Shown: positions 744 to 16,307 of the stretch, piece after piece
How positions within the stretch are numbered: position 1 is the first letter of the stretch
Layout of the letters: every line of letters begins with the position of its first letter
Assembly: GCA_024644045.1 (NCBI GenBank)
Contig: JAHELT010000005.1
Coordinates: forward strand, 8,149-72,148
DNA: 64,000 bases
Source of the DNA: Chromatiales bacterium
GTDB taxonomy: Bacteria; Pseudomonadota; Gammaproteobacteria; JAHELT01
Reading direction: 5' to 3'
Program-made: the position numbers and the translations under genes
Notes under the pieces: model-generated
Database searches by the model: none
What the model was told of the DNA's origin: nothing
The model's input: only the letters and a program-made list of their open reading frames with translations

Positions 744-1436
744 ATGGCACGGATCGCACGTGTTGTTATTCCCGGCTACCCGCATCACGTCACACAACGC
801 GGTAATCGCCGGCAGAAAGTCTTTTTCGATCCGTCGGACTACCGCACCTACCTGGATCTCGTCGCGGAAGGATTCCGGCAGGCTCGCGCCAAGTGCTGGG
901 CGTATTGCCTGATGCCCGATCACGTGCATCTGGTGCTCGTCCCCGAGTCACCCGACGGATTGCGTCGAGCGCTCGCCGAGCCGCACCGGCTCTACACGCG
1001 GGAAGTGAATGCCCGGCAAGGGTGGCGCGGCCACCTCTGGCAGGAACGCTTCCACTCTTTCCCGATGGACGAAACCTACCTGTTGTCCTGCGTACGTTAC
1101 GTGGAACGCAGCCCCGTCAGGGCCGGACTGGTATCACGTCCGCAGGAATGGCAGTGGTCGAGCGCGCGCGCGCGCCTGCTCAGCCTCGATGATCCGCTGG
1201 TCTCGCCGGCGCCAATGCTCGACCGCATAGACGACTGGTCAGCCTACCTCGCGACGGACAGCGAATCGCGCGTGCAGGACGCATTGCAGTGTCACGCGCT
1301 ATCCGGACGGCCACTCGGGTCCGAACGCTTCCTGGACACGGCCGAGCAGGTTACCGGCAGGTTGCTGCGCCCGCAGAAACCGGGCAGGAAACCGCGCACC
1401 AAAAAGACGTCGAGTGAAAGCGTACCGCGCCTGTGA
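744..1436 (+). CDS. REP-associated tyrosine transposase (RAYT; IS200/IS605-like Y1 HUH transposase)
   Basis: 230-aa ORF: MARIARVVIPGYPHHVTQRGNRRQ...MPDHVHLVLVP (HxH HUH motif)...catalytic-Tyr region YVERSPVRAGLV. The stop lies 8 nt from the 3' end of a convergent tRNA-like gene. Confidence 0.85.
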   Translation: MARIARVVIPGYPHHVTQRGNRRQKVFFDPSDYRTYLDLVAEGFRQARAKCWAYCLMPDHVHLVLVPESPDGLRRALAEPHRLYTREVNARQGWRGHLWQERFHSFPMDETYLLSCVRYVERSPVRAGLVSRPQEWQWSSARARLLSLDDPLVSPAPMLDRIDDWSAYLATDSESRVQDALQCHALSGRPLGSERFLDTAEQVTGRLLRPQKPGRKPRTKKTSSESVPRL

Positions 1437-1706: not shown

Positions 1707-4700
1707 CTATTCCGACAGTATTTCGTTAACCGCTGCCCAGGTCTCGTCAACCCAGCCGGCGACGCCGGCGGCTTCGCGCAGGGCGGCGACCGAAAGACCG
1801 GTCTCTCGCGGCTCGAGCGCCGGGGCCCAGAAGGCAAGCTGCGCGACATAGAAGTCGGTTCCCCCCGAACCGATGAGGACCAGGGCCTCCCCGAAACGCC
1901 CGGCGCGGGCGAGCCCTTCCGCCAGGACGTTGTAGCGCGCACGGCTGCGGCGCGACTCTTCGAGCGCTTCGGCGAACAGCGATTCGGCCCACGGCGCCCC
2001 GGCGGGGAGCAGTTCGGCGGCTAGTATCGCGAACGCATCATGGCCCTTACCTTCGGCGTGAAGTTGCCGCGCGAGCGCCTCGGCAAGGGCGACGAGGTCC
2101 GGCGTGCGCCCGTCGCCGCTCACCGCCGCCGCACCCGCCAGCTCCGAGAGCGCCTGCAGACGCCACAGCGGCACTTCGATGCGCTCGGCGATCTCACGCG
2201 CCTGGTCGTACAGGCCGGCCCGCACCGCCGCCCTGGCGGTGCTCGCCAGCAACCTGGGGCGGGATTTGGGCTCATCCAGCGCATCGGCCGCGGCGGCGGC
2301 CTGCTCAAGGACCTGTTGCGCCGCCGCCGGCGCTGTCTCCGCCTGCCACGCTGCATAGTCCCGCAGCGCCATCACCCTGAGGACGGGGCTCTTGAGGTCC
2401 TCGATCCACCGGGGAATGTCCTCGCCCCGGCCGGCAGCGAGCATTGCCTGAACACTGGTCTCCGGCCGCCCGAGGTCGTACTCGAGGCGGTAGACGATCC
2501 TGCCCGCGAGGCCGAGCGCCGCATCGAGCCGTCCCGCGCTGGCGAAAGCAAGGGCCAGCGCGTGCTGCACCTGCTGCTTCCAGTAGAAAAACAGATCGGG
2601 GTCTTCGATAGCGGCGGTGTCATCGAGCAGTCCCTCGTCGATCCTTCGCATCGCATCGCCGTAGCGCAGCATGGCTTCGCGCTCCGACACCTCGGTAATG
2701 AGTTCAGCGATGCGCTGGGCGCGTCCAGGCTGCCCGGCATCGATGACCGCCTCGATGACCCGCTTCAGTACCTGGGTTCTGCGATTGCCGGGCCGGTGGG
2801 CGCGCGCTGCTTTCAGGGTCTTGTCAAACACCGGCGCCGCGGCGGGGTCTCTCCTGCGGGCGAGGTAGGTGGCCAGGGTGCGCAGCTCACGGACCCGGTG
2901 GCCGGTGGCCGGCACCGCCTCCGCGGCCCGGATGCAACGCTGGAGCACCTCTTCGCGTTCCGGGCGCCCGTCCTCGTCCAGTGTCCTCAGCAGGTCGAAG
3001 AGCACACCCGATTGCGTGCTCTTGTTTTCAATCGTGGTTGTGGTATCCAGCGCATCCTCGAAGGTACGCGCGGCACCGGCATTGTCGCCGCCGGCGTGCA
3101 TTCCCCGGGAGACCCGGTATAGCGTCGCGATTCGATCGGTGATGGAGGCAATCTCGCCCGCGACCTCCAGAGCCTGCTCCGAATCACCCGAGGCGGCGAG
3201 CGCTTCGGCGAAGGCCGGCGCCGCACGCAGCGGGTCCGGCGTGTTGACGAATCGAAAACCGCCGCGTCCCTCCTCGCGCAGCACCGCGTTGTGCGCTTCG
3301 TTCTCTTGCATGAGCTGCTCGGCAACGGCACGGATACCTCTGGCGGCCTCGCGAAAGACCGGAACTGCCGCCGGGTCCGCGCTTTGCGCCATCGCGATCG
3401 CCAGCCCCTCCAGCGCTGCGGCGCGTCGCTCCGGATGCTCGATGTTGCGCGCAGCCGCGCGGGCACTGTCGAAAACCCGTGAGGCGTCGGGAAGACCAAG
3501 CCGGGCCAGCACGCCGGCAAGGTCCCTGAGCGCCTCGGCCTGCGCCATCGGTCTGTCACAGTCGAGGGCAGCGGCCTCGGCGTCCCTGAAACAACGGCCG
3601 CTCTCGGTGTCGCCCGCTTCGCGATGCCGTGTGGCGAGTTCGAGGAGCGCGGCCGAACGGTCCTCGGCATGGAAAAGCGACTGCGCTACCCGCCTCGCTT
3701 CCTCGAAAGCCCCGGCCGCCATGGCGGTCTTTACGAGCCCTCGTCCGGCATGGTGCCAGCTGTAGTCACGCGCGCGATCCAGTTCGGCAGCGGCATCGAG
3801 CGCCCGGTCCAGCAGTACTCTGCGGTGCTGCTTGGACGCGAGTGTGAGCGCGACGGCGACCAGCGCCTGACCGCGTACTCCGGCATCGGGTATCGCGTCG
3901 GCGATCTGTTCTGCGCGCTCGGGAGTCCCGGCCTGCGCCACGCGCGTTGCCAGATCGCACAGCGCTTCACTGCGTATGCGGGCGTGCGGGATCGCCTGGA
4001 TGTGCCGCTCGGCCGTGTCGTGATCGCCGGCTTCCGCTTGTGCTCGTGCAAACGCTGCGAGCGCTGCGGCCTGCTCCTTTGTCTGTGAGTGCTCGCGGTG
4101 GAGGCACGCAAGCTCGAGCGCTCTGTCACCGGAGCCGGCACGCACCAGCGCCTCGGCGGTGATTCCCAGAGCCTCTTCCCGGCGCGACGCATCCTGGATC
4201 GCGCGCGCGATCGATTCCGCCTGCTGCAGCCGGCCGTGGCGCACGTTGCACTGCACCAGGTTCACCTGTGCCGAGGCCCGCGAGTACTCGTTTCTTATGG
4301 CCGGCAGGCTCTCGGCCGCCCGGTCCAGGAGCCCGGCGTCCGCCTGACCCCGTTCCTCGAGGGCGGCGTACACCGCCAGCAGGCTTTCAACACGCGTGCC
4401 CGCGTCCAGGCGCAAGTGTGCATGGGCCTTGGCTTCCGCCGCTCTGTCGATCAGCACCAGGTTGACGAGGTCCTCATCCGTGTAGTCATCGAGCCGCCGC
4501 CCCACGACGACGCGGGCGGCCTGCACCCGCGTCAGGGCAACGAGGTCTTCGGGCCGTTGCTCGATAAGTGCCTGCCACACCAGCGTGACGTCCTCCAGGA
4601 ATCCGGAGTCGTTATAACCGCATTGCACGTAACGCCTGTCGAGCCACGCCTGGTCTATCTGGCCGACCGCCCGATCGAAATCACCGCACGCAAGCAGGTG

Positions 4701-5996
4701 CGCGATCAGGTGGCGAAGGCCGTACTCGTCGGGCGGTGCCTGAGTCTCCAGGGTCCGCTGCGTGTAATGATCGGCGATGCGCCGGTGCATTGCCGCCGCA
4801 TCGATGCGGTAGTCCAGGTTGGACGCGTCGTCGAAAAGAAAGCCGCGAAACGAGTCATGAAAGATCCGGAAGGGCCCGTCCGGGAAAGGACCGGAGAAGT
4901 ACTGTTTGAGCGCGCGCAGGGTGGGGCCGGAATCTCTGCCGCTGATAGCGTTCAGCTGCGCGAGGGTCAACCCGTCGTCCCGAGCAGCGGCTACGAGTCC
5001 CAGGACCGGTTTCAGCGATGCCTCCCAGCGCTCCTCGTCGTCGCCGACCTCGCGGGTCAGGAAGTCGTGGTACAGGCCGGGGAGGTCCGGCGGCAGCGCG
5101 ACCGCATCGAGCACTTCGGGCTGTTCGCTGGGGTGGCGCGCGAGCAGATCCTCAAGGACCAGACGCGCATAAAGAAAGTTACCGTCCGCCGCGTTCGCGA
5201 CGCGCGCCGCGACAGTGTCTCGAAGCGCCTCGTCCAGTTCACGCAGATACTCCCGCGCATACTGCTCCACGTCGCGCCGGTTGTCCGGGGCCTGTTCGAG
5301 GTCCAGCGGCTCGACCTCGCGAAACCAGCGCAGGATCCGCGGATCCGGGCGACTGCTCACCAGCAAGCGTACCTGCGCCGGAAGGTCGGTCAGCTTGGTC
5401 AGCAGACGAACGATAGTGGTGGCACCACTGTGGGTGGCCCCCTCGTCCAGCGAATCCACCAGGATCACCAGGTTACCGCAGCCCTGCCGCTCGCAGCACC
5501 GCTTCAGGGGCTCGACCAGAACGTCGCGGAAGGCCGCTTCGTCGTCGTTCGAGGCGACATGCAGGTGCTCGATATGCACCGCGACGGCCCGGCCGCCGGC
5601 ACCAACCTCACCCACCTTCTGCTCGACACGGATGTTGACGTGCGCCGAGACCGACTCGGCGAGCGACTCGGCAAATCCCTCTACCGAGTTGCTTAGCTGG
5701 TCTGCGACGCTTTCCAGGAAATCGCGCGGCGCAGTGCTCGAGGATTTTGCGACGCAGAAGTGCGATGCCTTGACGTAGCCGCGGATTCTGGCGAGTTGAT
5801 CGCGCGGCAGGCTGTCTGCCGGCGCCGGGCCCGCCCCCGAGAGCCACGCCATGAGCAGGCTTTTGCCCGCGCCGGGTGGACCCGTGAGCAGAAACATCCG
5901 GCGCTCGGAACGCTCGATCCAGTCGAGCAGCGGCGGAAGCAGCCACTCGCGGCCGCGGAAGTGCTGTACGTTCTCCCTGAGGGGCGAAGGGATCAT
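1707..5996 (-). CDS. NACHT/STAND P-loop NTPase with long C-terminal TPR/HEAT-like repeat region (NLR-like; bNACHT/Avs-like architecture without N-terminal effector)
   Basis: 1429 aa. Walker A LLTGPPGAGKSLL sits 37 aa from Met. Walker B is NLVILVDSLDEG (NACHT-type D-x-h-D-E) and sensor-1-like motif is RLLVSSRPD. This is followed by ~1000 aa of Ala/Leu/Arg-rich helical repeats. An in-frame stop 12 codons upstream of the ATG rules out a longer N-terminus. Confidence 0.85.
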   Translation of the reverse strand: MIPSPLRENVQHFRGREWLLPPLLDWIERSERRMFLLTGPPGAGKSLLMAWLSGAGPAPADSLPRDQLARIRGYVKASHFCVAKSSSTAPRDFLESVADQLSNSVEGFAESLAESVSAHVNIRVEQKVGEVGAGGRAVAVHIEHLHVASNDDEAAFRDVLVEPLKRCCERQGCGNLVILVDSLDEGATHSGATTIVRLLTKLTDLPAQVRLLVSSRPDPRILRWFREVEPLDLEQAPDNRRDVEQYAREYLRELDEALRDTVAARVANAADGNFLYARLVLEDLLARHPSEQPEVLDAVALPPDLPGLYHDFLTREVGDDEERWEASLKPVLGLVAAARDDGLTLAQLNAISGRDSGPTLRALKQYFSGPFPDGPFRIFHDSFRGFLFDDASNLDYRIDAAAMHRRIADHYTQRTLETQAPPDEYGLRHLIAHLLACGDFDRAVGQIDQAWLDRRYVQCGYNDSGFLEDVTLVWQALIEQRPEDLVALTRVQAARVVVGRRLDDYTDEDLVNLVLIDRAAEAKAHAHLRLDAGTRVESLLAVYAALEERGQADAGLLDRAAESLPAIRNEYSRASAQVNLVQCNVRHGRLQQAESIARAIQDASRREEALGITAEALVRAGSGDRALELACLHREHSQTKEQAAALAAFARAQAEAGDHDTAERHIQAIPHARIRSEALCDLATRVAQAGTPERAEQIADAIPDAGVRGQALVAVALTLASKQHRRVLLDRALDAAAELDRARDYSWHHAGRGLVKTAMAAGAFEEARRVAQSLFHAEDRSAALLELATRHREAGDTESGRCFRDAEAAALDCDRPMAQAEALRDLAGVLARLGLPDASRVFDSARAAARNIEHPERRAAALEGLAIAMAQSADPAAVPVFREAARGIRAVAEQLMQENEAHNAVLREEGRGGFRFVNTPDPLRAAPAFAEALAASGDSEQALEVAGEIASITDRIATLYRVSRGMHAGGDNAGAARTFEDALDTTTTIENKSTQSGVLFDLLRTLDEDGRPEREEVLQRCIRAAEAVPATGHRVRELRTLATYLARRRDPAAAPVFDKTLKAARAHRPGNRRTQVLKRVIEAVIDAGQPGRAQRIAELITEVSEREAMLRYGDAMRRIDEGLLDDTAAIEDPDLFFYWKQQVQHALALAFASAGRLDAALGLAGRIVYRLEYDLGRPETSVQAMLAAGRGEDIPRWIEDLKSPVLRVMALRDYAAWQAETAPAAAQQVLEQAAAAADALDEPKSRPRLLASTARAAVRAGLYDQAREIAERIEVPLWRLQALSELAGAAAVSGDGRTPDLVALAEALARQLHAEGKGHDAFAILAAELLPAGAPWAESLFAEALEESRRSRARYNVLAEGLARAGRFGEALVLIGSGGTDFYVAQLAFWAPALEPRETGLSVAALREAAGVAGWVDETWAAVNEILSE

Positions 5997-6075
5997 GTCA
6001 GAGCAGACTGACCACTTATGGGTGACTTTGTGTCATCGAACGACGGTATTGCCGACCGCGCCGTACGCAGCAGGA

Positions 6076-6519
6076 CTAGCCGATGGTTTTTCCGTCGAAG
6101 CCCGTGAGGTCCTTCGCCTCGTCCACTTCCTGGGTAACATCGACCTCGCCGCTCTTCAGTGATTCGACCCGGACGCCGGTGACATGCTCCGCGACTTTGA
6201 TTTTCTGGATAACCCTTATCTTCGGCCCCAGGTCGTCGAGCAGGGTTCGCACCTCCGCGGCGAATGCCGGGTCGACTTCGAGGTTCGCTCGGACAATGTC
6301 GGCGACGGCGGATGCATACCGCTTCGGGTGACGCTGAAAAAGTTCCAACCCCGCCTCGGCTTCTCTGTCACCCGTCCAGCGCTTCCTGAGCACGGCCAGG
6401 AGATCGCCTGCCTTACCGGCCGCGGCTTCCCCTGCCTGCTTTGCGAACGCCTCCGCGCCGATGCTGACGAACGGCGCTGCGACACTGACCACGCTGGCTG
6501 CGACGGCGGCAAAATCCAT
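6076..6519 (-). CDS. Hypothetical 147-aa protein, same-strand partner directly upstream of the NACHT NTPase; no recognisable domain
   Basis: The ORF track gives 168 aa. I start it at the internal ATG (MDFAAVAASVVSVAAPFVSIGAEAF...), which has a strong RBS (GAGGAG N7 ATG). N-terminal ~25 aa are hydrophobic, followed by a charged region. The gap to the NTPase start is 80 nt. Confidence 0.6.
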   Translation of the reverse strand: MDFAAVAASVVSVAAPFVSIGAEAFAKQAGEAAAGKAGDLLAVLRKRWTGDREAEAGLELFQRHPKRYASAVADIVRANLEVDPAFAAEVRTLLDDLGPKIRVIQKIKVAEHVTGVRVESLKSGEVDVTQEVDEAKDLTGFDGKTIG

Positions 6520-6681
6520 GGCCTTGCTCCTCAGGTTTCGGGATAGACGCGGGCGCCGTCCGGCCGCTCGCCGGCTGGGCAACTGACCGTCAGTCTACCT
6601 GCTCGGCGAGGCCGGAATCTATAACGCAGCGGGTGTCTGCCCGGCGCCGCCCTCAGGGATCGACTGCAGCGTGCTTCACGT

Positions 6682-7788
6682 TCAGGCGCGTACGCGTGAT
6701 TTCCGGCGGTCGTAGAACGGTATGGCTTCGACACTGGCGGTGCAGCTGAAGTCGTCGCCGACGGCCTCCAGCCTCGTGCCCGGCGTTGCTGCATCCGGGC
6801 GCACGTGGCAGAGCGCGAGCGATTTGTTCATGCGGCGCGACCAGCAGGGGCTGTTCACCACGCCGACGTCCTCGCCCTCCAGCATCAGCTTCTCGCCGCC
6901 CGCGAGCGCATCGCTGTGATCAGCGACGATACCCGCACGCAGGAAGCGCTCCTTGCCCTCGGCGGCAAATAACGCATCCTTGCCGCGGAAATCGCCTTTG
7001 TTGCGCGCGACGGTAAAGCCGAGTCCGGTTTCCCACGGTGTGTGGTCATCGGTCATGTCGTACCCGTAGAACAGGAGTGCGGCTTCGATGCGCACCTTGT
7101 CGAGCGCCGTGAATGAACAGGGCATGACGCCGTGCTGCTCACCATGGCCGAGCAGGTTGTCCCAGATGTCACCAATCACCGCGCTGCCGGCGAGAATCTC
7201 ATAGCCCCGTTCGCCGGAATACCCGGTGCGGGAAATGCGACACGCGTGGCCGAAAATCTCGCTCGCCTGGTGGTGAAAATATTGCAGCGCAGCCAGGTCC
7301 ATCGGCGTGTGCGCATCGAGCAGCGCCAGCGCCTTCGGCCCCTGCACCGCAACGTTGTGCAGGTCGTCATCAAGCTCGAGGTCGACGTTCAGGCCTTCCA
7401 CGGACTCCTGCAACCGCTCCATGCTCCCGCCCGACCCATGGCACAGCAGCCACTCGTTCCCGTCATTGTTGGCGATGATGGCGTCGTCGCTGACGGTGCC
7501 CCGTTCAGTCAGTATCGCGCCGTAGGCCGACTTACCCGGATAGATTATTGTCATGTCGCGGGTGATCACATGATCGACCGCTTTCGCCGCATCGGCCCCA
7601 CGCACGTAGACCTTCTTGAGCGGAGACATATCGAACAGCCCCGCCGCCTCGCGCACCGCATCGTGCTCGTCGTTCGGATCCGAGTTGTATGTCCACGCCG
7701 TGCCCATGCCGTTCCAGTCCTCGAGGCCGGAACCCAGTGCAGTGTGGCGGGATGCCAGTGCGGATACGCGAGATAGCTCGGCGGTCAT
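6682..7788 (-). CDS. Aminomethyltransferase-family (GcvT/DmdA-like) folate-dependent protein
   Basis: Shows GcvT-fold hallmarks (EHDAVREAAGLFDMSPL..., ...GYSGERGYEI...). Start set at MTAEL with RBS AGGAGA N6 ATG. Confidence 0.8.
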   Translation of the reverse strand: MTAELSRVSALASRHTALGSGLEDWNGMGTAWTYNSDPNDEHDAVREAAGLFDMSPLKKVYVRGADAAKAVDHVITRDMTIIYPGKSAYGAILTERGTVSDDAIIANNDGNEWLLCHGSGGSMERLQESVEGLNVDLELDDDLHNVAVQGPKALALLDAHTPMDLAALQYFHHQASEIFGHACRISRTGYSGERGYEILAGSAVIGDIWDNLLGHGEQHGVMPCSFTALDKVRIEAALLFYGYDMTDDHTPWETGLGFTVARNKGDFRGKDALFAAEGKERFLRAGIVADHSDALAGGEKLMLEGEDVGVVNSPCWSRRMNKSLALCHVRPDAATPGTRLEAVGDDFSCTASVEAIPFYDRRKSRVRA

Positions 7789-7834
7789 TTGCATTCTCCT
7801 GTACAAGCAGTGTCTCTGTGAGGGGCCGAGACGG

Positions 7835-9412
7835 CTAGTACCACTGATCTTTCGCCGCCCGCTTCTTTCTGTTCATGAAATCCAGCAGTGCCTCGTCGAC
7901 GGCGGGATCCATCGCCGGGCGTTGATACTCGGCCAGCAGCCTGGTCCAGTGCTCGTAGGCGCGCTGCTGCATGTCCTTGCTGCCATCGTCAGTCCACTGC
8001 TCGAAGGATTTCGTGTCGCTCAGGGTCGAGTGGTAGTTCGTCTTGAAGTTGCGCAGGGTGTGTGCGGTGCCAAGAAAATTCGTGCCGATGCCGGCCTCGA
8101 GGTAAGCGTCTGCGCCGAGATCGTTGTCGTCCAACGCGAGCCCCTGAACCTGGCGCGCGATGCCGGCGCAACGATCCGCGTCCATGACGAACTTCTCGTA
8201 GCCGATGCTCAGACCGCCCTCGAGCCACCCCGCGGCCTGAAACACGAAATTCGCACCCGCCATGATCGCCGGATTCATCGTGTCCGCCGACTCCATCATG
8301 GCCTGTGCGTCTGCGATCTTGGAGGCGGTCAGATGGCCGCCGCAGCGAAACGGCAGCCCCAGCCGTCGGCACAGCTGTGAAATCGCCAGACAGGCGAGCG
8401 TGGATTCAGGGGTCCCGAACGTAGGTGCGCCGGTCTTCAGATCCATGGTGGTGAGGAAGCTGCCGTACACCACGGGCGCGCCTCTACGCACCAGCTGCGT
8501 CAGCGCAATGCCCACCATCGCCTCCGCGTGGGCCTGTGCGATCAGTGCGCCCTGCGTGACCGGGCTCATCGCGCCGGCGAGTATGAACGGCGATACCACA
8601 TTACCCTGGTTCGCCCCCGCATAGGCACGCAGGGCACGCGTCATCGTGTCGTCATACACCAGCGGTGAATTGACGTTGATGTTGCCCTGTATAACCAGGT
8701 GTTCTTGCATGAACGCCTCGCCGAATACGATGCGCGCCATCGTCAGCGAATCCTCCGCGCGTTCCGGTGCGGTCACCGACCCCATGAACGGCTTGTCCGA
8801 GTAGCGCAGATGCGCATAAACCATATCCAGATGACGTTTGTTGACCGCGACATCCACAGGCTCGCACACAGTGCCGCTCTGGTGTTGCAGCGCGGGTGTC
8901 ATGTAAGTGAGCTTGACGAAGTTCTGAAAGTCTTCGACCGTGCCGTAACGGCGGCCGCGCTTCAGATCGGTCACGAAGGGCGAACCGTATGCCGGCGCCA
9001 GTACCAGATTATCGCCGCCGAAGTCGATGCTCCGCGCCGGTGTGCGCGCGTGCATGCGAAAGGTTCTGGGTGCGGTCTCGCAAAGCGAACGCACATGCCC
9101 CCGGTCGAAGCGCAGGCGCTCCCCGTCCACCGTCGCCCCTGCCTCCCTGAACAGCTGCAGCGCGTCGGGATCACCGCGCAGCTCGATACCGATCTCGGCG
9201 AGGATCCAATCGGCGTGATTCTCCAGCGTTACCAGCGCCTCTTCGTCAAGCAGCTTGTAGACGGGCGTCCTGCGTCGGATAAGGGCGGAGGCGGTTTGCG
9301 GGCCCCGCTGACACTCGGCGAGATGTGCGGCGCGGCCGCCCCGGCGCCCCCGGCGCCGCGCGGGAACACCCGCGGGCGTGCGGTCCGAGGGCGGTGTGGA
9401 AGCGTCTCGCAT
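7835..9412 (-). CDS. MttB-superfamily (trimethylamine/glycine-betaine:corrinoid methyltransferase-like, non-Pyl) protein
   Basis: 525 aa with an N-terminal RRRGRRGGRAA motif, PVYKLLDEEAL and ...NYHSTLSD...FEQW, as seen in COG5598 MttB/MtgB homologues. Adjacent to the GcvT-family gene. Confidence 0.8.
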   Translation of the reverse strand: MRDASTPPSDRTPAGVPARRRGRRGGRAAHLAECQRGPQTASALIRRRTPVYKLLDEEALVTLENHADWILAEIGIELRGDPDALQLFREAGATVDGERLRFDRGHVRSLCETAPRTFRMHARTPARSIDFGGDNLVLAPAYGSPFVTDLKRGRRYGTVEDFQNFVKLTYMTPALQHQSGTVCEPVDVAVNKRHLDMVYAHLRYSDKPFMGSVTAPERAEDSLTMARIVFGEAFMQEHLVIQGNINVNSPLVYDDTMTRALRAYAGANQGNVVSPFILAGAMSPVTQGALIAQAHAEAMVGIALTQLVRRGAPVVYGSFLTTMDLKTGAPTFGTPESTLACLAISQLCRRLGLPFRCGGHLTASKIADAQAMMESADTMNPAIMAGANFVFQAAGWLEGGLSIGYEKFVMDADRCAGIARQVQGLALDDNDLGADAYLEAGIGTNFLGTAHTLRNFKTNYHSTLSDTKSFEQWTDDGSKDMQQRAYEHWTRLLAEYQRPAMDPAVDEALLDFMNRKKRAAKDQWY

Positions 9413-9546: not shown

Positions 9547-10437
9547 ATGCGCTTCCTAGCCTACGACAGCCTGCGATTGTTCACCGTGGTCGCGCGCCAT
9601 CTGAGCTATACCGCCGCGGCCGTCGAACTCAATCTGAGCAAAGGCGCGGTCAGCTATCGGATCGCGCGACTCGAGCACGGGCTCGGTTTCAAGTTGTTCC
9701 ACCGCCAAAATCGCAGGATCTCGCTCACCGCGAAAGGGAAACGGCTGCTGAGCAATGCACGCACGGCTTTCGAGGAGCTGGAGACGGAGATCGAGACCCT
9801 GCGCCGTGACGGCCGCAGCGTGGTCACGATCGGTATGTCGACCTATTTCGCTTCGCGCTGGCTTTCGCCGCGGCTGATGACTTTCACGAGCCGGTTTCCG
9901 GCTGTCGGACTTCGGCTGCAACCCACGGTCGGTCCGGTCGACTTGCGCACGCAGGATATCGACATGGTAATCCGTTGGGGTAACGGTAAGTGGACCGACC
10001 TCGAGATCGAACGACTGTTCGACTGCCCTGCCTTCCCGACAGCGGGCGCTGCGATGGCACGCGCCGTCGAGAAATCCGGTCTGACGTCTGCATTGGAGAA
10101 GGCCACGCTGCTGCACGACTACGAAGGAAGCAACGCCTGGCGGAACTGGTTTCACGTGGCCGGCATGCCGTACCCCTCACAGCGCGAGGATCTCGTGATC
10201 CCTGATCCGAACGTGCGCGTACAGGCGGTCATCGACGGGCAGGGCGTCGCGTTGAATGACGCGCTGGTAAATCCCGAGCTGGAGGCCGGCAGGCTGTTTC
10301 GGATTTCCGAAGTTCGCCTGACAGATTACGGTTACTTCCTCGCCTTTCCCCGGCAGGCGCTCGACAACCCGGCGTTGAAACAGTTTCTCGACTGGATCAC
10401 CCAGGAGGCGCGCGGCGAGAAAGACACGTCATCCTGA
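9547..10437 (+). CDS. LysR-family transcriptional regulator (divergent from mttB-like gene)
   Basis: N-terminal HTH region LRLFTVVARHLSYTAAAVELNLSKGAVSYRIARLE, 296 aa. Confidence 0.9.
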   Translation: MRFLAYDSLRLFTVVARHLSYTAAAVELNLSKGAVSYRIARLEHGLGFKLFHRQNRRISLTAKGKRLLSNARTAFEELETEIETLRRDGRSVVTIGMSTYFASRWLSPRLMTFTSRFPAVGLRLQPTVGPVDLRTQDIDMVIRWGNGKWTDLEIERLFDCPAFPTAGAAMARAVEKSGLTSALEKATLLHDYEGSNAWRNWFHVAGMPYPSQREDLVIPDPNVRVQAVIDGQGVALNDALVNPELEAGRLFRISEVRLTDYGYFLAFPRQALDNPALKQFLDWITQEARGEKDTSS

Positions 10438-12371: not shown

Positions 12372-13415
12372 TTAGAACAGGAACACGCCCTTCCCCGTGG
12401 TCTGCTTGTCGAACAGCGCGTAGGCTTCCTCGGCCTGCTCGAGCGAGTACCGGTGGGTGAAGATGCGCTCCAGCTGCACCCCGCGCTCGGCAATGAAGCG
12501 CGCGCACTCCGCCTGGCCGAGGCTCGAGAAGGTCCACGAGCCGATTATCGTGAGCTGCTTACGGATCATGTCGTTCGAGACATCGAGGGTTACCGTGTTG
12601 CCCTCGCCCACGAAACACACCGTGCCCCAGGTGCGGGTCGCGTGCACGGCCTGAAGGCGCGCCTCGGGTGAGCCGCTGCAGTCGATGGCGAGCTCGACAC
12701 CGCGTCCCCGGGTAGCCGCGCGAATCGCCTCGACCGGGTCTCCGTCAGCGGCGTTGATAATCGCGTCAGCGCCGAACGACGCTGCGATGGCGAGGCGCTC
12801 GCTCGAGATATCCAGTGCGATCACGCGCGCGCCCATCGCGTTCGCGAGCGTCACCATGCTCAAGCCGACCGGCCCCTGACCGAACACCGCGAGCGTGTCG
12901 CGCGCCGTCAGGCCCATCCGCTGGATCGCCCCGAATGCCGTGCCGGTGCCGCAGGAAACGGCCGAACCCTCCGCGAAGGACAGCGCCTCGGGAAGCGGCA
13001 CCAGCGTGCTCACCGGGACGGCCATGTACGGCGCATGCGCGCCGTGACCGGTCGCACCGTAGACGACGAAACCCTCAGGGCACAACTGCTGCCAGCCGGA
13101 GCGGCAGTGGGGGCACACGCCGCAACCCTTGTAATGGTGGCACATCACCCGCGCTCCATCGGGTGCAAGCGTTTCAGACACGTTCGCCCCCCGCGCCACC
13201 ACGACGCCGCAGGGCTCGTGCCCGCCGATGATCGGGCTGCCGTCACCGCCCAGCCCCAGCGACTTCGCGCCCTCCGCGGCCCGGTAGAAGTGCAGGTCGC
13301 TCCCGCACATTCCGGACGCCTTGATCTCGAGCACCACCTCGTCGGGCCCGGGCGACGGATCGGGAAACTCCATCAGCTCGAGCTGCCGGCTGCCTTTGAA
13401 AACCACGCCTTTCAC
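12372..13415 (-). CDS. Zinc-dependent alcohol dehydrogenase (MDR family)
   Basis: GHEPCGVV and CGVCPHC zinc motifs plus a GxGxxG Rossmann motif (VFGQGPVGL). GTG start with RBS AGGGGGA. Confidence 0.9.
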   Translation of the reverse strand: MKGVVFKGSRQLELMEFPDPSPGPDEVVLEIKASGMCGSDLHFYRAAEGAKSLGLGGDGSPIIGGHEPCGVVVARGANVSETLAPDGARVMCHHYKGCGVCPHCRSGWQQLCPEGFVVYGATGHGAHAPYMAVPVSTLVPLPEALSFAEGSAVSCGTGTAFGAIQRMGLTARDTLAVFGQGPVGLSMVTLANAMGARVIALDISSERLAIAASFGADAIINAADGDPVEAIRAATRGRGVELAIDCSGSPEARLQAVHATRTWGTVCFVGEGNTVTLDVSNDMIRKQLTIIGSWTFSSLGQAECARFIAERGVQLERIFTHRYSLEQAEEAYALFDKQTTGKGVFLF

Positions 13416-13448: not shown

Positions 13449-14954
13449 TCAGCCGACCACGAACGGGTTGGCCACCTCTTCGGCGGTGGAAATCCACACG
13501 CTCTTGGTCTGCAGGTACTCGCGGATCGCCTCCTGGCCGAGCTCGCGCCCGAGGCCGCTTCGTTTGTAACCGCCGAAGGGCGTGGTGTAGCTCAGCGCGC
13601 GGTAGGTGTTCACCCACACCGTGCCCGCCTGCAGCCGCCGGGCCATGGTGAAGGCGCGGCGGATGTTCTCCGTCCACACGCCGGCCGCCAGGCCGAACAC
13701 CACATCGTTGCCGATCGCTACCGCCTCGTCGTCGTCGGTGAAAGGGATCACGGAGAGCACCGGGCCGAACACCTCCTCCTGGGCGATGCGCATGTCGTTG
13801 CGCACCCCGGTAAAAATCGTCGGCTCGACGAACCAGCCGTCGCCGCACTCCGGGCGTTGGGCTTTACCGCCGCCGAGCACGGTTTGCGCGCCCTCACCCT
13901 TGGCGACATCGATGTAACCGAGCACCTTCTTGTACTGGGGCAGGTTGGTCACCGGACCGACCTGGGTGTCGAGCTCCATCGGGTTGCCCATCCTGGCAGT
14001 GCGGGCGAAGTCGACCAGCCGCTCGACGAACTCGTCATGCACGCTGCGCTGCACCAGCAGCCGCGAGCCGGCCACGCAGGTCTGCCCGGTCGCGGCGAAG
14101 ATACCGGAAACAGCGCCCTTCACCGCGTTGTCCATGTTGGCGTCCGCGAACACGATGTTGGGCGACTTGCCGCCGAGTTCCAGGCTCACGCGCTTGATGT
14201 CCCTGGCAGCCTCGGAGTAGATGTGCGCGCCGGTGCGGTCGGAACCGGTGAAGGCCACCTTGCGCACCAGGGGATGCTCGATGAGGGGCTGACCGGCTTC
14301 CGGGCCGAAGCCGGTGACGACGTTCACGACGCCTTTGGGGAAACCCGCCTGCTCGATCAGCTTGACGAACTCGAGCGTCGACGCCGAGGTGTACTCCGAG
14401 GGCTTCACCACCACGGTGTTACCGGCTGCCAGCGCGGGCGCGAGCTTCCAGGCCGTCAGCAGCAGCGGCGAGTTCCACGGGATGATCGCCGCGCAGACCC
14501 CCAGGGGCTCATGCAGCGTGTAGGTGAAAGCGGCCTTGTCGTTGGGAATAACCGCGCCTTCGATCTTGTCGGCGAGACCGGCGAAGTAGTGGTAGAAGCT
14601 GGGCGCGTACCGGAGCTGCGCCGCCATTTCGCTCAGCAGCTTGCCGTTGTCCTTCACCTCGAGCTCGCCCAGGCGCTCGGCGTTCTCGGCCACCAGGTCG
14701 CCGAGTCTGCGCAACAGCGCGCCGCGCTGGCTGGCGTTCAGCGCGGGCCACGGGCCGCTCGTGAAAGCGCGATCAGCCGCCTTTACCGCACGGTCCGCGT
14801 CCTCGGCGTTGCCGCGCGCGATGAGGCACCAGGGCTTCGCGGTATAGGGGTCGAAACTCTCGAACCAGTCGCCCGACGCCGAGTCTACGAACTCGCCGTC
14901 GATGTACATTTTAAGCTTGGGAAACGTGTCCCGCGCTTTCATCGGCGTTGCCAT
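13449..14954 (-). CDS. NAD(P)-dependent aldehyde dehydrogenase
   Basis: ALDH motifs ELGGKSP and FTGS...CVAG are present. Start set at MATPMK with RBS GGAGA; the ORF track's longer start was rejected. Confidence 0.9.
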   Translation of the reverse strand: MATPMKARDTFPKLKMYIDGEFVDSASGDWFESFDPYTAKPWCLIARGNAEDADRAVKAADRAFTSGPWPALNASQRGALLRRLGDLVAENAERLGELEVKDNGKLLSEMAAQLRYAPSFYHYFAGLADKIEGAVIPNDKAAFTYTLHEPLGVCAAIIPWNSPLLLTAWKLAPALAAGNTVVVKPSEYTSASTLEFVKLIEQAGFPKGVVNVVTGFGPEAGQPLIEHPLVRKVAFTGSDRTGAHIYSEAARDIKRVSLELGGKSPNIVFADANMDNAVKGAVSGIFAATGQTCVAGSRLLVQRSVHDEFVERLVDFARTARMGNPMELDTQVGPVTNLPQYKKVLGYIDVAKGEGAQTVLGGGKAQRPECGDGWFVEPTIFTGVRNDMRIAQEEVFGPVLSVIPFTDDDEAVAIGNDVVFGLAAGVWTENIRRAFTMARRLQAGTVWVNTYRALSYTTPFGGYKRSGLGRELGQEAIREYLQTKSVWISTAEEVANPFVVG

Positions 14955-15208
14955 GGGGGGTATCTCCTGTCGCATCCTCAGCGTCGCGGCAACGAGGGAT
15001 CCACGTGATCCCACGGCTGCTTGAACTGCGAATATACAACCATCTGGGGTTGGTAGGCACTCGGATCGTCGAGCGTCGCGGCATGCAAGACGAGATACTC
15101 GGGTACGCGGAAGAGGTCTTCAGAACCGGGCTGCCGCAGTCGGCGCAGAAGCCGCTGTTGACCGTGTTCCTGACGGGTGCCGGAACGAATCCGCTCAGGG
15201 GCCACCAA

Positions 15209-15515: not shown

Positions 15516-16307
15516 TCAATTGTTTCTGTTGTCCTGCAGCAACAGCATGCTTCCCTGGTCGACCTGAATGAGTCCGCGTTTCGGCCGGTCGAGGTCGATG
15601 ATGATGAACACGATCATCGCGATCAGGAAAGCCACCATGATCGTCGGCGCCACCACCCGTCGACCGCTCAATCCGCTCGAGTAACCCAGCATACTGCCGG
15701 AGGCGATAAACACGATAAACAGCAGCACAAGCACGACTTCCGGCACGTGCATCTGAAGCAACGCATTTCTTTTCCCCTGGCTGTCGATAAGCTCATTGAG
15801 CGATGTGATGAACGCCCCGGTCGTCACCGGGCGTGGATCATCCTGCGCCGCCATTACCGCCAGTGACCAGAGCGCGTTCTGGAGCCGTGAAATCTGACCG
15901 TCGTATTGCTTTCGTTCTTCACGCCTCGTCAGGTCCAGTTTACCGATAGCAATACGCAGAGCGATGTACTCTTCAAGCAGACGTACGGCTTTTTCCCGGT
16001 ATTGTTCGGGCAGCAATTGAACGCGCAGTTCGACGGTGCCGATTGCATTTGCTTCGGCAATCAAGGCCTGGCTGCGTCCGTCAAATCGCTGCATCGACAT
16101 GCTGAACGTGAAGCCGAGCAGCAGTGCCAGCAGGCCCAGTATGCTCGCCTGAATGGCGCCGGTCAGTGTCTTGATTTCGGTATCGGTGCTGCCCTGGACG
16201 AAACGGCCGATCCGGAACCCGATCTCATTAGATACAACGAGTAGTCCAAATAGCGTCGCGGTGATCGCGATGCTGGAGAAGTCATACAGAAGCTGCTGCT
16301 GATCCAT
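15516..16307 (-). CDS. Membrane protein with two TM segments flanking a coiled-coil (DUF4239-like)
   Basis: 263 aa. Hydrophobic segments sit at the N-terminus and at ~aa 195-245, with a central charged helical region. Confidence 0.55.
   Translation of the reverse strand: MDQQQLLYDFSSIAITATLFGLLVVSNEIGFRIGRFVQGSTDTEIKTLTGAIQASILGLLALLLGFTFSMSMQRFDGRSQALIAEANAIGTVELRVQLLPEQYREKAVRLLEEYIALRIAIGKLDLTRREERKQYDGQISRLQNALWSLAVMAAQDDPRPVTTGAFITSLNELIDSQGKRNALLQMHVPEVVLVLLFIVFIASGSMLGYSSGLSGRRVVAPTIMVAFLIAMIVFIIIDLDRPKRGLIQVDQGSMLLLQDNRNN

Follow-up and report, generated by a model that had tools for sequence, protein, structure and literature searches.

A paired small gene and NLR-like NTPase gene with a common repeat motif: a candidate amyloid-type cell-death cassette in a Chromatiales bacterium

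The stretch of 64,000 nucleotides analysed here (the window) comes from a Chromatiales bacterium (contig JAHELT010000005.1, positions 8,149 to 72,148). On its minus strand it contains a small gene, encoding a protein of 147 amino acids, and directly downstream a gene for an NTPase resembling the nucleotide-binding oligomerisation domain (NOD)-like receptors (NLRs). The two proteins have a motif in common, present as two tandem repeats at the C-terminus of the small protein and as one copy inside the NTPase. Probably, the gene pair is an NLR/effector cell-death cassette of the Bell/BASS kind, signalling by templated beta-stacking (i.e., of the amyloid type). Fungi and animals are known to use amyloid-type signalling between NLRs and death effectors, as are, since 2020-2024, bacteria. 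The overall kind is already known; what stands out is the HET-s-like covariation signature, the size of the unannotated family and the presence of the receptor motif inside the NOD. Coordinates of all features are collected in Table 1.

A protein of 147 residues encoded at 6076-6519 had been described in the initial annotation without mention of the strand. It is encoded by the minus strand, and the translation matches it exactly; the plus strand across 6076-6519 contains an internal stop. The longest open reading frame (ORF) that can be drawn mechanically for the small gene begins at a TTG codon at 6582. As the homologues begin with the residues MD, the ATG at 6519, which has a Shine-Dalgarno-like GAGGAG 7 nt upstream, is the preferred start. 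The small gene and the NTPase gene are adjacent and collinear, on the same strand with a gap of 79 nt (28 nt at the homologous locus L001), as are the genes of Bell/BASS-NLR pairs. When the spacer was scanned, neither a terminator-like nor a promoter-like site was found, from which we infer that the two genes are co-transcribed. The ribosome-binding site and the co-expression with a NACHT NTPase that the initial annotation had suggested are thus in agreement with the GAGGAG sequence, the common strand and the short gap.

The C-terminus of the small protein is made up of two contiguous 25-residue repeats, which follow a conserved Gly-Pro pair at residues 98-99 and have a connector of 2-3 residues. 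Both repeats conform to the pattern phi-x-[VI]-x-Q-x-phi-x-x-[AG]-x-x-[VI]-[TVI]-G-phi-x-phi-x-x-phi. Alignment of the profile of repeat 1 with that of repeat 2 gives a probability of 97% and a score of 31.8, versus 7.2 ± 2.0 (maximum 14.4) for 100 column shuffles. The "beta-like stretch" reported earlier for this part of the protein is therefore real, although its tandem nature had been missed.

The repeats contact each other in register, as revealed by covariation of charges at positions that correspond between repeat 1 and repeat 2. Among 87 members of the family, with a median pairwise identity of 31%, repeats of the same protein form 414 opposite-charge pairs and 11 same-charge pairs. Re-pairing the repeats across proteins yields 189.5 ± 10.9 opposite-charge and 179.4 ± 10.6 same-charge pairs, and none of 1000 re-pairings came near the observed values. 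The signal is absent at shifts of one to four residues either way, and at every antiparallel register tried. At ten positions, +/- and -/+ combinations are both frequent, with +/+ and -/- almost never present; for position 18 (R117 and D142 in the window protein), +/-, -/+, +/+ and -/- are observed 26, 36, 0 and 0 times, respectively (Fisher p = 5e-18). The window protein has eight complementary pairs, including K100/E125, R102/D127, K106/E131, K108/D133, E111/K136, R117/D142 and E119/K144, and a ninth if H112/D137 is counted. Because the charge covariation is found at shift zero and in the parallel arrangement only, the two repeats are predicted to stack in parallel and in register, as a two-layer beta-solenoid. 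Two in-register pseudo-repeats with complementary interlayer charges are a feature of the HET-s type, evident here from covariation, not from a structure.

In the AlphaFold2 (AF2) model of the small protein, calculated with an alignment of 89 sequences (mean predicted local distance difference test, pLDDT, of 85), the N-terminal domain is all-alpha, with helices formed by residues 3-29 (kinked), 31-47, 52-63, 69-82 and 84-97. The N-terminal hydrophobic segment noticed earlier is indeed present, with a mean Kyte-Doolittle hydropathy of 1.9 over residues 4-22. The family consensus starts with M-[DE]-P-x-[TS]-[LIV]-A, after which the hydrophobic helix begins; of the 118 family members in which position 2 is present, 102 have an acidic residue (D/E) there, proline occupies position 3 in 71 of 114, and P16, G30 and P65 are nearly invariant. 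Bell/HeLo-type death domains have been described as five-helix bundles that have a hydrophobic helix 1 and, at position 2 or 3, an acidic residue, and related death domains as having a "MEPIS" motif and "four helices cupping helix 1". The small protein, with its all-alpha domain of about 100 residues, hydrophobic first helix and acidic position 2, has these described features, making it likely, by analogy, that its N-terminal domain is a membrane-targeting death domain of this type. In 11 of the 89 members, weak, sub-threshold but colinear matches were found to the 102-position Pfam model PF20701 (HetE-N).

The N-terminal domain is modular and occurs with other tails. At locus L044 (166-555) it carries a different tail, ARGTGIAQATDSSTASVFIGSVNQ, which matches the extreme N-terminus, AEGAGIAQAVDGAIATVVTNVFQG, of the NACHT protein encoded downstream (567-1799); the same is the case at L045. 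A match between effector C-terminus and NLR N-terminus, as seen at L044, is the canonical Bell/BASS layout. In P0098 (136 amino acids), the domain is followed by the RHIM-like sequence KYQIQIGEG, the core of which, IQIG, was spotted by eye; a Pfam scan of this protein did not report RHIM. P0130 (285 amino acids) joins the domain, along with what is left of repeat 1, to a DUF4231/SLATT domain with two transmembrane segments (Pfam E = 5e-24).

The partner of the small protein belongs to the NACHT/STAND NTPases. Pfam NPHP3_N matches it with 47.6 bits (cutoff 24.8), NACHT and AAA_16 match below their cutoffs, and Walker A, Walker B and C-terminal repeats are all present. Its homologues P0157-P0162 bear the source name "nSTAND1 domain-containing NTPase". 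Neither its translation nor the Pfam scan revealed an effector domain of its own. From the NLR architecture, its C-terminal part of about 1000 residues would be the sensor; the homologue at L003 has TPR matches in this region.

The receptor-side copy of the motif is located in an insert between Walker A and Walker B, retained in all 16 related NTPases examined, among them six further homologues of the N-terminal part of the window NTPase. Several of these homologues keep the VTG signature of the effector in the insert, for example as GASVTGV. As the motif arc of the receptor is three residues longer than the effector repeats, gapped profile-profile alignment was needed to compare them. We used hhalign with 200 column shuffles for each comparison, none of which reached the observed score. 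The effector repeat aligns with the insert of the window-type NTPases (class B, see below) over 22 columns with one 3-residue gap, at a score of 19.9 and a probability of 90% (shuffles 6.35 ± 1.34, maximum 13.7), and with the motif of zinc ribbon-bearing partners (class A) at a score of 13.3 (shuffles 6.1 ± 1.5, maximum 11.9). Class A motif and class B insert align at 20.5 (shuffles 7.4 ± 1.7, maximum 13.5). For 8 of 10 class B NTPases, that of the window among them, the best match of an ungapped position-specific scoring matrix (PSSM) of the effector repeat falls within the insert, the proteins being related and the scores low. HMMER searches of the partner proteins with motif models of 23-26 residues gave no significant match. 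A motif of 20-25 residues common to the effector C-terminus and the adjacent NLR is thus present, as in Bell/BASS pairs. The partnership of small protein and NTPase proposed in the initial annotation is supported; the copy of the effector motif inside the NTPase had escaped it.

AF2 modelling of residues 1-420 of the NTPase (alignment of seven sequences, pLDDT 66) shows the insert as two strands, 120-127 and 139-147, joined by a low-confidence loop and flanked by helices 108-114 and 152-171; they are not part of the core, the strands of which are 34-38, 75-80, 176-183 and 209-215. In cognate pairs of both receptor classes, the charges of the receptor motif are the same as those of repeat 1 in 39 cases and opposite in 17, while for repeat 2 they are the same in 16 and opposite in 40, a weak trend from few, related sequences. 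The receptor motif thus resembles repeat 1 and complements repeat 2, which would fit directional growth away from the receptor.

Related loci were collected with a subset of 13 sequences of the family, biased to members carrying FE[EAK]KPERY, and the partners were counted by hand in the 35 loci for which 250 nt or more of sequence were available downstream. In 29, the next gene carries one related motif copy, either after an N-terminal zinc ribbon or inside the NACHT module. At L044 and L045, a different motif is common to effector and partner, as described above, and at the remaining four (L006, L031, L032 and L039) no motif-bearing partner is encoded immediately downstream. The class A partners, from 14 soil-metagenome loci, have an N-terminal zinc ribbon, one motif copy such as AQIEVSQQVGTVEGGRVVGVDLGEV and an NB-ARC-like NTPase; the partner at L009 combines zinc ribbon, motif, NACHT domain and FGE-sulfatase domain. 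Class B partners, NACHT-like NTPases that lack an N-terminal extension and have the motif between Walker A and Walker B, are found in the window and at L001, L003 (three times), L010, L011, L014, L037, L038 and L040. In class C, from Nostocales, a 200-residue protein with zinc ribbon and motif is followed by a protein of about 415 residues (L004 8463-10313, L005 8458-10317, L007 8446-10329, where the zinc ribbon is absent, and L042 6458-7060). A Pfam scan of the two class C proteins of L004 found no match, and the Nostocales loci look like a three-gene version without a recognisable NTPase.

Further variants occur. In the Chloroflexia metagenome-assembled genome of L003 (3398-14516), one small effector gene lies amid three paralogous insert-bearing NTPases. 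Two NTPases carry the motif not once but twice in their insert (L003 3398-6733 and L051 1-1314), and at L047 the order is reversed, with the small gene downstream of the NTPase. The flanking genes differ between pairs, with MnmG at L001 and GcvT at the window and at its close homologue L002. As the pair persists with different flanking genes, the two genes appear to move as a unit; the co-occurrence with NLR-like NTPases, which the initial annotation had proposed to look for, is conserved in relatives.

In two Joint Genome Institute (JGI) metagenomes (L048/L049, 1-8932), the insert-bearing NTPase P0161 is encoded between a 1356-residue protein with a weak Peptidase_M10 match and a CHAT protease gene. 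With no small family member near P0161, the insert-bearing NTPase clade may also work with other effectors.

The small-protein family is large. An exhaustive HMMER search with an alignment of close relatives retrieved at least 604 cluster representatives at E ≤ 1e-3, 223 of which at E ≤ 1e-10; nearly all are about 147 residues long and match end-to-end. A word-indexed search found four close relatives, 63-100% identical; for close homologues the identity is 63-85%. The taxonomic range of the family, taken from one-genome-per-species data, includes Chloroflexia, Dehalococcoidia, Anaerolineae, Fischerella, Nostoc, a Calothrix plasmid and a Methanotrichaceae archaeon. In searches with tblastn, phage records gave no match and plasmid records only the Calothrix plasmid, all genes of which are named "hypothetical protein". 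The public names that family members carry are the same, except for two JGI entries with an evidently unrelated name. The initial annotation had recognised no domain in the protein, and Pfam, NCBIfam and PADLOC scans likewise gave no family match. A profile search of PDB sequences with the family returned nothing below E = 0.005, and at that level only designed proteins and lysozyme; Foldseek comparison of the AF2 model with the PDB and the viral structure library BFVD returned nothing with E below 2. Remote homology searches thus led to no named family. Of the observations that would have spoken against the earlier proposal, homology to a housekeeping family was not found in the Pfam, NCBIfam, PADLOC and PDB profile searches.

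The 126-residue metagenomic protein P0142 is a chimera, its first 53 residues being homologous to the small protein and its last 70 or so to the end of the NTPase (compare window 6361-6519 and 1710-1920). It looks like the product of a deletion of nearly the whole cassette in some population.

Like HET-S/NWD2 and, among bacteria, Bell/BASS and Bab/Agp, the proposed cassette would probably work as follows. A trigger would be recognised by the C-terminal helical repeats of the NTPase, about 1000 residues in length, upon which the NTPase would oligomerise. The inserted motifs would then become exposed or ordered, generating a template layer resembling repeat 1. Repeat 2 of an effector could dock onto this template and repeat 1 fold onto repeat 2, after which further effectors would add in the same way. 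The resulting stack would consist of two beta-solenoid layers per effector, stabilised by ladders of opposite charges and of glutamines. Folding of the tail would destabilise the helical bundle and free helix 1 to insert into the membrane, leading to cell death, either as abortive infection or as another form of regulated death. It is quite possible, if somewhat doubtful, that the stacking motif is built into the NACHT nucleotide-binding module such that nucleotide-driven oligomerisation itself assembles the template for the HET-s-like, two-repeat effector.

Gene pairs of the Bell/BASS-NLR kind have been reported in filamentous bacteria and archaea (Dyrka et al. 2020, bioRxiv 10.1101/2020.01.06.895854). 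The pair described here resembles them in its protein of about 140 residues with a helical domain of about 100, in the position of the hydrophobic helix at the very start and of the acidic residue at position 2 or 3, and in the C-terminal motif of about 25 residues common to the effector and the adjacent, collinear NLR-like NTPase. BASS1 and BASS6 have likewise been reported to combine a double repeat in the effector with one copy in the receptor. The taxa are the same (Cyanobacteria, Chloroflexota and Methanotrichales), and, as for Bell, the N-terminal domain is modular and combined with several different tails. Unlike in the Bell/BASS pairs, the receptor motif in the window is located between Walker A and Walker B instead of at the NLR N-terminus, and in many relatives a zinc ribbon precedes the motif. 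The motif also differs from BASS1-10: it is absent from the table of pairs (Table S2), which contains no VTGA, ITGA, VIGA or VVGA strings and in which VTGL and VTGV occur once each, in unrelated motifs. Its profile has a weak likeness to BASS4 (hhalign score 11.7, probability 18%), and BASS1 and BASS5 gave no signal. In the accessible literature, the location given for such motifs is consistently the N-terminus of the NLR and the C-terminus of the effector. The 2020 screen covered only stretches of 10-150 residues before the NOD (bioRxiv 10.1101/2020.01.06.895854); for this reason, an embedded receptor copy would escape it.

The fibril formed by HET-s(218-289) is a two-layer parallel in-register beta-solenoid with interlayer salt bridges. 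Stacking of repeats in register with opposite charges is shared with this fibril, here deduced from covariation alone. As in the HET-S/NWD2 pair of Podospora anserina (motif HRAM), the effector has two pseudo-repeats and the NLR one, and, as in HET-S, there is an N-terminal helical domain, the first helix of which is proposed to be released into the membrane. Differences are that the 25-residue repeats are contiguous, with a connector of 2-3 residues in place of the flexible loop of 6-15 residues of HET-S, that the system is bacterial and that the receptor motif is internal. The small protein had no Pfam match to HRAM/HET-s_218-289 or HeLo at E ≤ 1, and HET-s_218-289 was not among the families most hit by the 89 members.

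Experimental proof of abortive infection via amyloid signalling exists for one bacterial case only, the Bab/Agp antiphage system of E. coli ECOR25, with motif BASS11 (bioRxiv 10.1101/2024.11.07.622273). This system has a small helical "Babybell" effector with a hydrophobic helix 1 and a C-terminal amyloid motif common to the adjacent sensor gene, like the present pair. In contrast to the latter, its BASS11 motif is present in a single copy and its effector is 109 residues long; the present family also differs in that no PDB entry matched it in sequence or fold. Finally, Avast2 and bNACHT02/11/23 have been described as all-in-one bacterial NLRs with an N-terminal "MEPIS" helical domain. Their N-terminal start motif is of the same kind and is likewise connected with a NACHT/STAND NTPase and cell death, with the difference that their death domain is fused to the NTPase, while here it would be a separate protein coupled to it by a common beta motif.

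Several observations weigh against the cassette being an amyloid-type death system. The charge covariation is compatible with a fibril, a small soluble two-turn beta-helix or a heterocomplex alike and cannot tell these apart, and its shuffle control ignores phylogeny. AF2 draws the tail of the small protein (window 6079-6222, minus strand; model m037997318af2) as one antiparallel hairpin, with pLDDT values of 60-78. Since the covariation supports only a parallel in-register arrangement, this part of the model is probably wrong or represents a state before conversion. Homology of the helical domain to Bell (seed ONI86675.1, residues 1-102) is not demonstrable, the link through the sub-threshold HetE-N matches being weak and the RHIM-like tail of P0098 indirect; Foldseek gave the AF2 model no match with E below 2 among PDB and viral structures. 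On the receptor side, the insert of the window NTPase is diverged, reading AVA where its relatives have VTG, and its single-sequence scores are non-significant (hidden Markov model E = 3.2; PSSM 0.8). In the folded NTPase module that surrounds it, the motif may lack the freedom to stack, unlike the published amyloid-signalling motifs, which are at free NLR N-termini. A receptor motif at the N-terminus, before the NOD, is found in the class A relatives and not in the window. The locus is not in a recognisable defence island and its neighbours are metabolic. The SLATT fusion of P0130 would agree with an adaptor as much as with an effector, and fibril formation, toxicity and an anti-phage role of the small-protein family are suggested by analogy.

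Some of these points are shared by a rather unlikely alternative, according to which the small protein would act as a stable adaptor or regulator and form no amyloid. Its tail would dock permanently onto the hairpin insert of the NTPase by sheet augmentation, and it would tune or inhibit ATPase activity or oligomerisation, as a guard, brake or co-sensor, with the helical domain being regulatory or recruiting. AF2 gives hairpins for both tail and insert, the motif is located beside the catalytic motifs, where a bound partner could control the enzyme, and P0130 fuses the N-terminal domain to a separate membrane effector, as adaptor domains do. However, the covariation requires a parallel in-register contact of the repeats and excludes antiparallel registers; moreover, in most relatives the receptor motif is on a free N-terminal tail after a zinc ribbon and not in the enzyme core. 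A regulator would also leave the window system without any effector, while the hydrophobic helix 1 and the M-D/E-P start are a hallmark of executioner domains. The suggestion in the initial annotation that the small protein could be the missing, possibly membrane-disrupting, effector is favoured by its conserved pairing with NLRs, by the lack of an effector domain in the NTPase and, by analogy, by its Bell/HeLo-type features; a regulator or decoy, the other suggestion made there, is less probable.

Two solenoid-like repeats with a charge ladder could also support homopolymers, and the four loci without a motif-bearing partner immediately downstream would agree with a self-polymerising beta-helical scaffold or membrane filament that is independent of the NTPase, the likeness of the motifs then being due to descent or composition only. 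We regard this as quite improbable, given that a motif-bearing receptor is directly adjacent in 29 of the 35 loci, that the motif similarity is above all shuffles and that the N-terminal domain is also paired with another receptor-matching tail (L044). A bactofilin-like filament was rejected on account of the conserved adjacency to motif-bearing receptors and the lack of a Pfam match to bactofilin or another polymer family. It is still far less probable that the hydrophobic N-terminus, the hydropathy of which exceeds the usual transmembrane threshold over residues 4-22, serves an unrelated secreted or housekeeping protein as a cleaved signal peptide or membrane anchor, a possibility raised in the initial annotation. 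The protein starts with M-D-F and has no basic residue before K27, and so lacks the basic n-region of a Sec or Tat signal peptide (judged by sequence, with no dedicated predictor run). Its acidic position 2 is conserved, AF2 makes the segment helix 1 within a confidently predicted soluble bundle, the protein matches no housekeeping family and the small gene is linked to NLR-like genes. The signal peptide or housekeeping protein was rejected on these grounds.

If receptor oligomerisation indeed assembles the template through the inserted motif, this would be a previously undescribed coupling of an NLR to a prion-like switch. Searches restricted to NLR N-termini would then have missed a whole class in Chloroflexota, cyanobacteria and archaea, some members of which have a motif tethered to a zinc ribbon. 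The receptor copy inside the NOD, if functional, ties nucleotide-driven oligomerisation to templating and widens where to look for such motifs. For a large unannotated family, the clean charge-swap covariation provides sequence-only evidence for an in-register beta-solenoid without a structure. The finding strengthens the case that HeLo/Bell-type executioners linked to prion-like switches are an old and widespread immune device.

Table 1. Features of the gene pair and its surroundings (window coordinates; residue numbers refer to the encoded protein).
Feature	Residues	Position	Strand	Basis or remark
Small gene (candidate effector)		6076..6519	-	147 codons and TAG stop
Shine-Dalgarno-like GAGGAG		6527..6532	-	read directly from the sequence
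Intergenic spacer, small gene to NTPase gene		5997..6075	-	79 nt
N-terminal helical bundle, candidate membrane-targeting Bell-like death domain	1-97	6229..6519	-	AF2 pLDDT 90-96
Hydrophobic helix 1	3-20	6460..6513	-	hydropathy and column statistics
Repeat 1 of stacking motif	100-122	6154..6222	-	KIRVIQKIKVAEHVTGVRVESLK; column statistics, profile match, charge covariation
Repeat 2 of stacking motif	125-147	6079..6147	-	EVDVTQEVDEAKDLTGFDGKTIG; ends at the C-terminus
NLR-like STAND NTPase (candidate receptor)	1429 residues	1707..5996	-	translation; Pfam NPHP3_N; no N-terminal extension
Walker A, GPPGAGKS	39-46	5859..5882	-	sequence
Receptor-side motif copy, between Walker A and Walker B	119-149	5550..5642	-	HVNIRVEQKVGEVGAGGRAVAVHIEHLHVAS
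Walker B, LVILVDSLDE	176-185	5442..5471	-	sequence
C-terminal part of NTPase, presumed sensor	about 1000 residues	1710..4709	-	helical, alanine-rich, repeat-like; sequence, weak PPR/TPR-type matches
IS200-like Y1 transposase ORF		744-1436	+	Pfam Y1_Tnp E = 7e-10
GcvT		6682-7806	-	
MttB-family methyltransferase		7835-9412	-	
LysR regulator		9547-10437	+	
Zn-dependent alcohol dehydrogenase		12372-13415	-	
Aldehyde dehydrogenase		13449-15014	-	
Bestrophin-like protein		15516-16307	-	

On the plus strand, at 2040-5696, several ORFs of up to 535 residues run antisense to the NTPase gene. They are not taken as genes, being a usual by-product of a G+C content of about 68%. The IS200-like transposase ORF begins about 270 nt past the 3' end of the NTPase gene and could bear on how mobile the two-gene cassette is.

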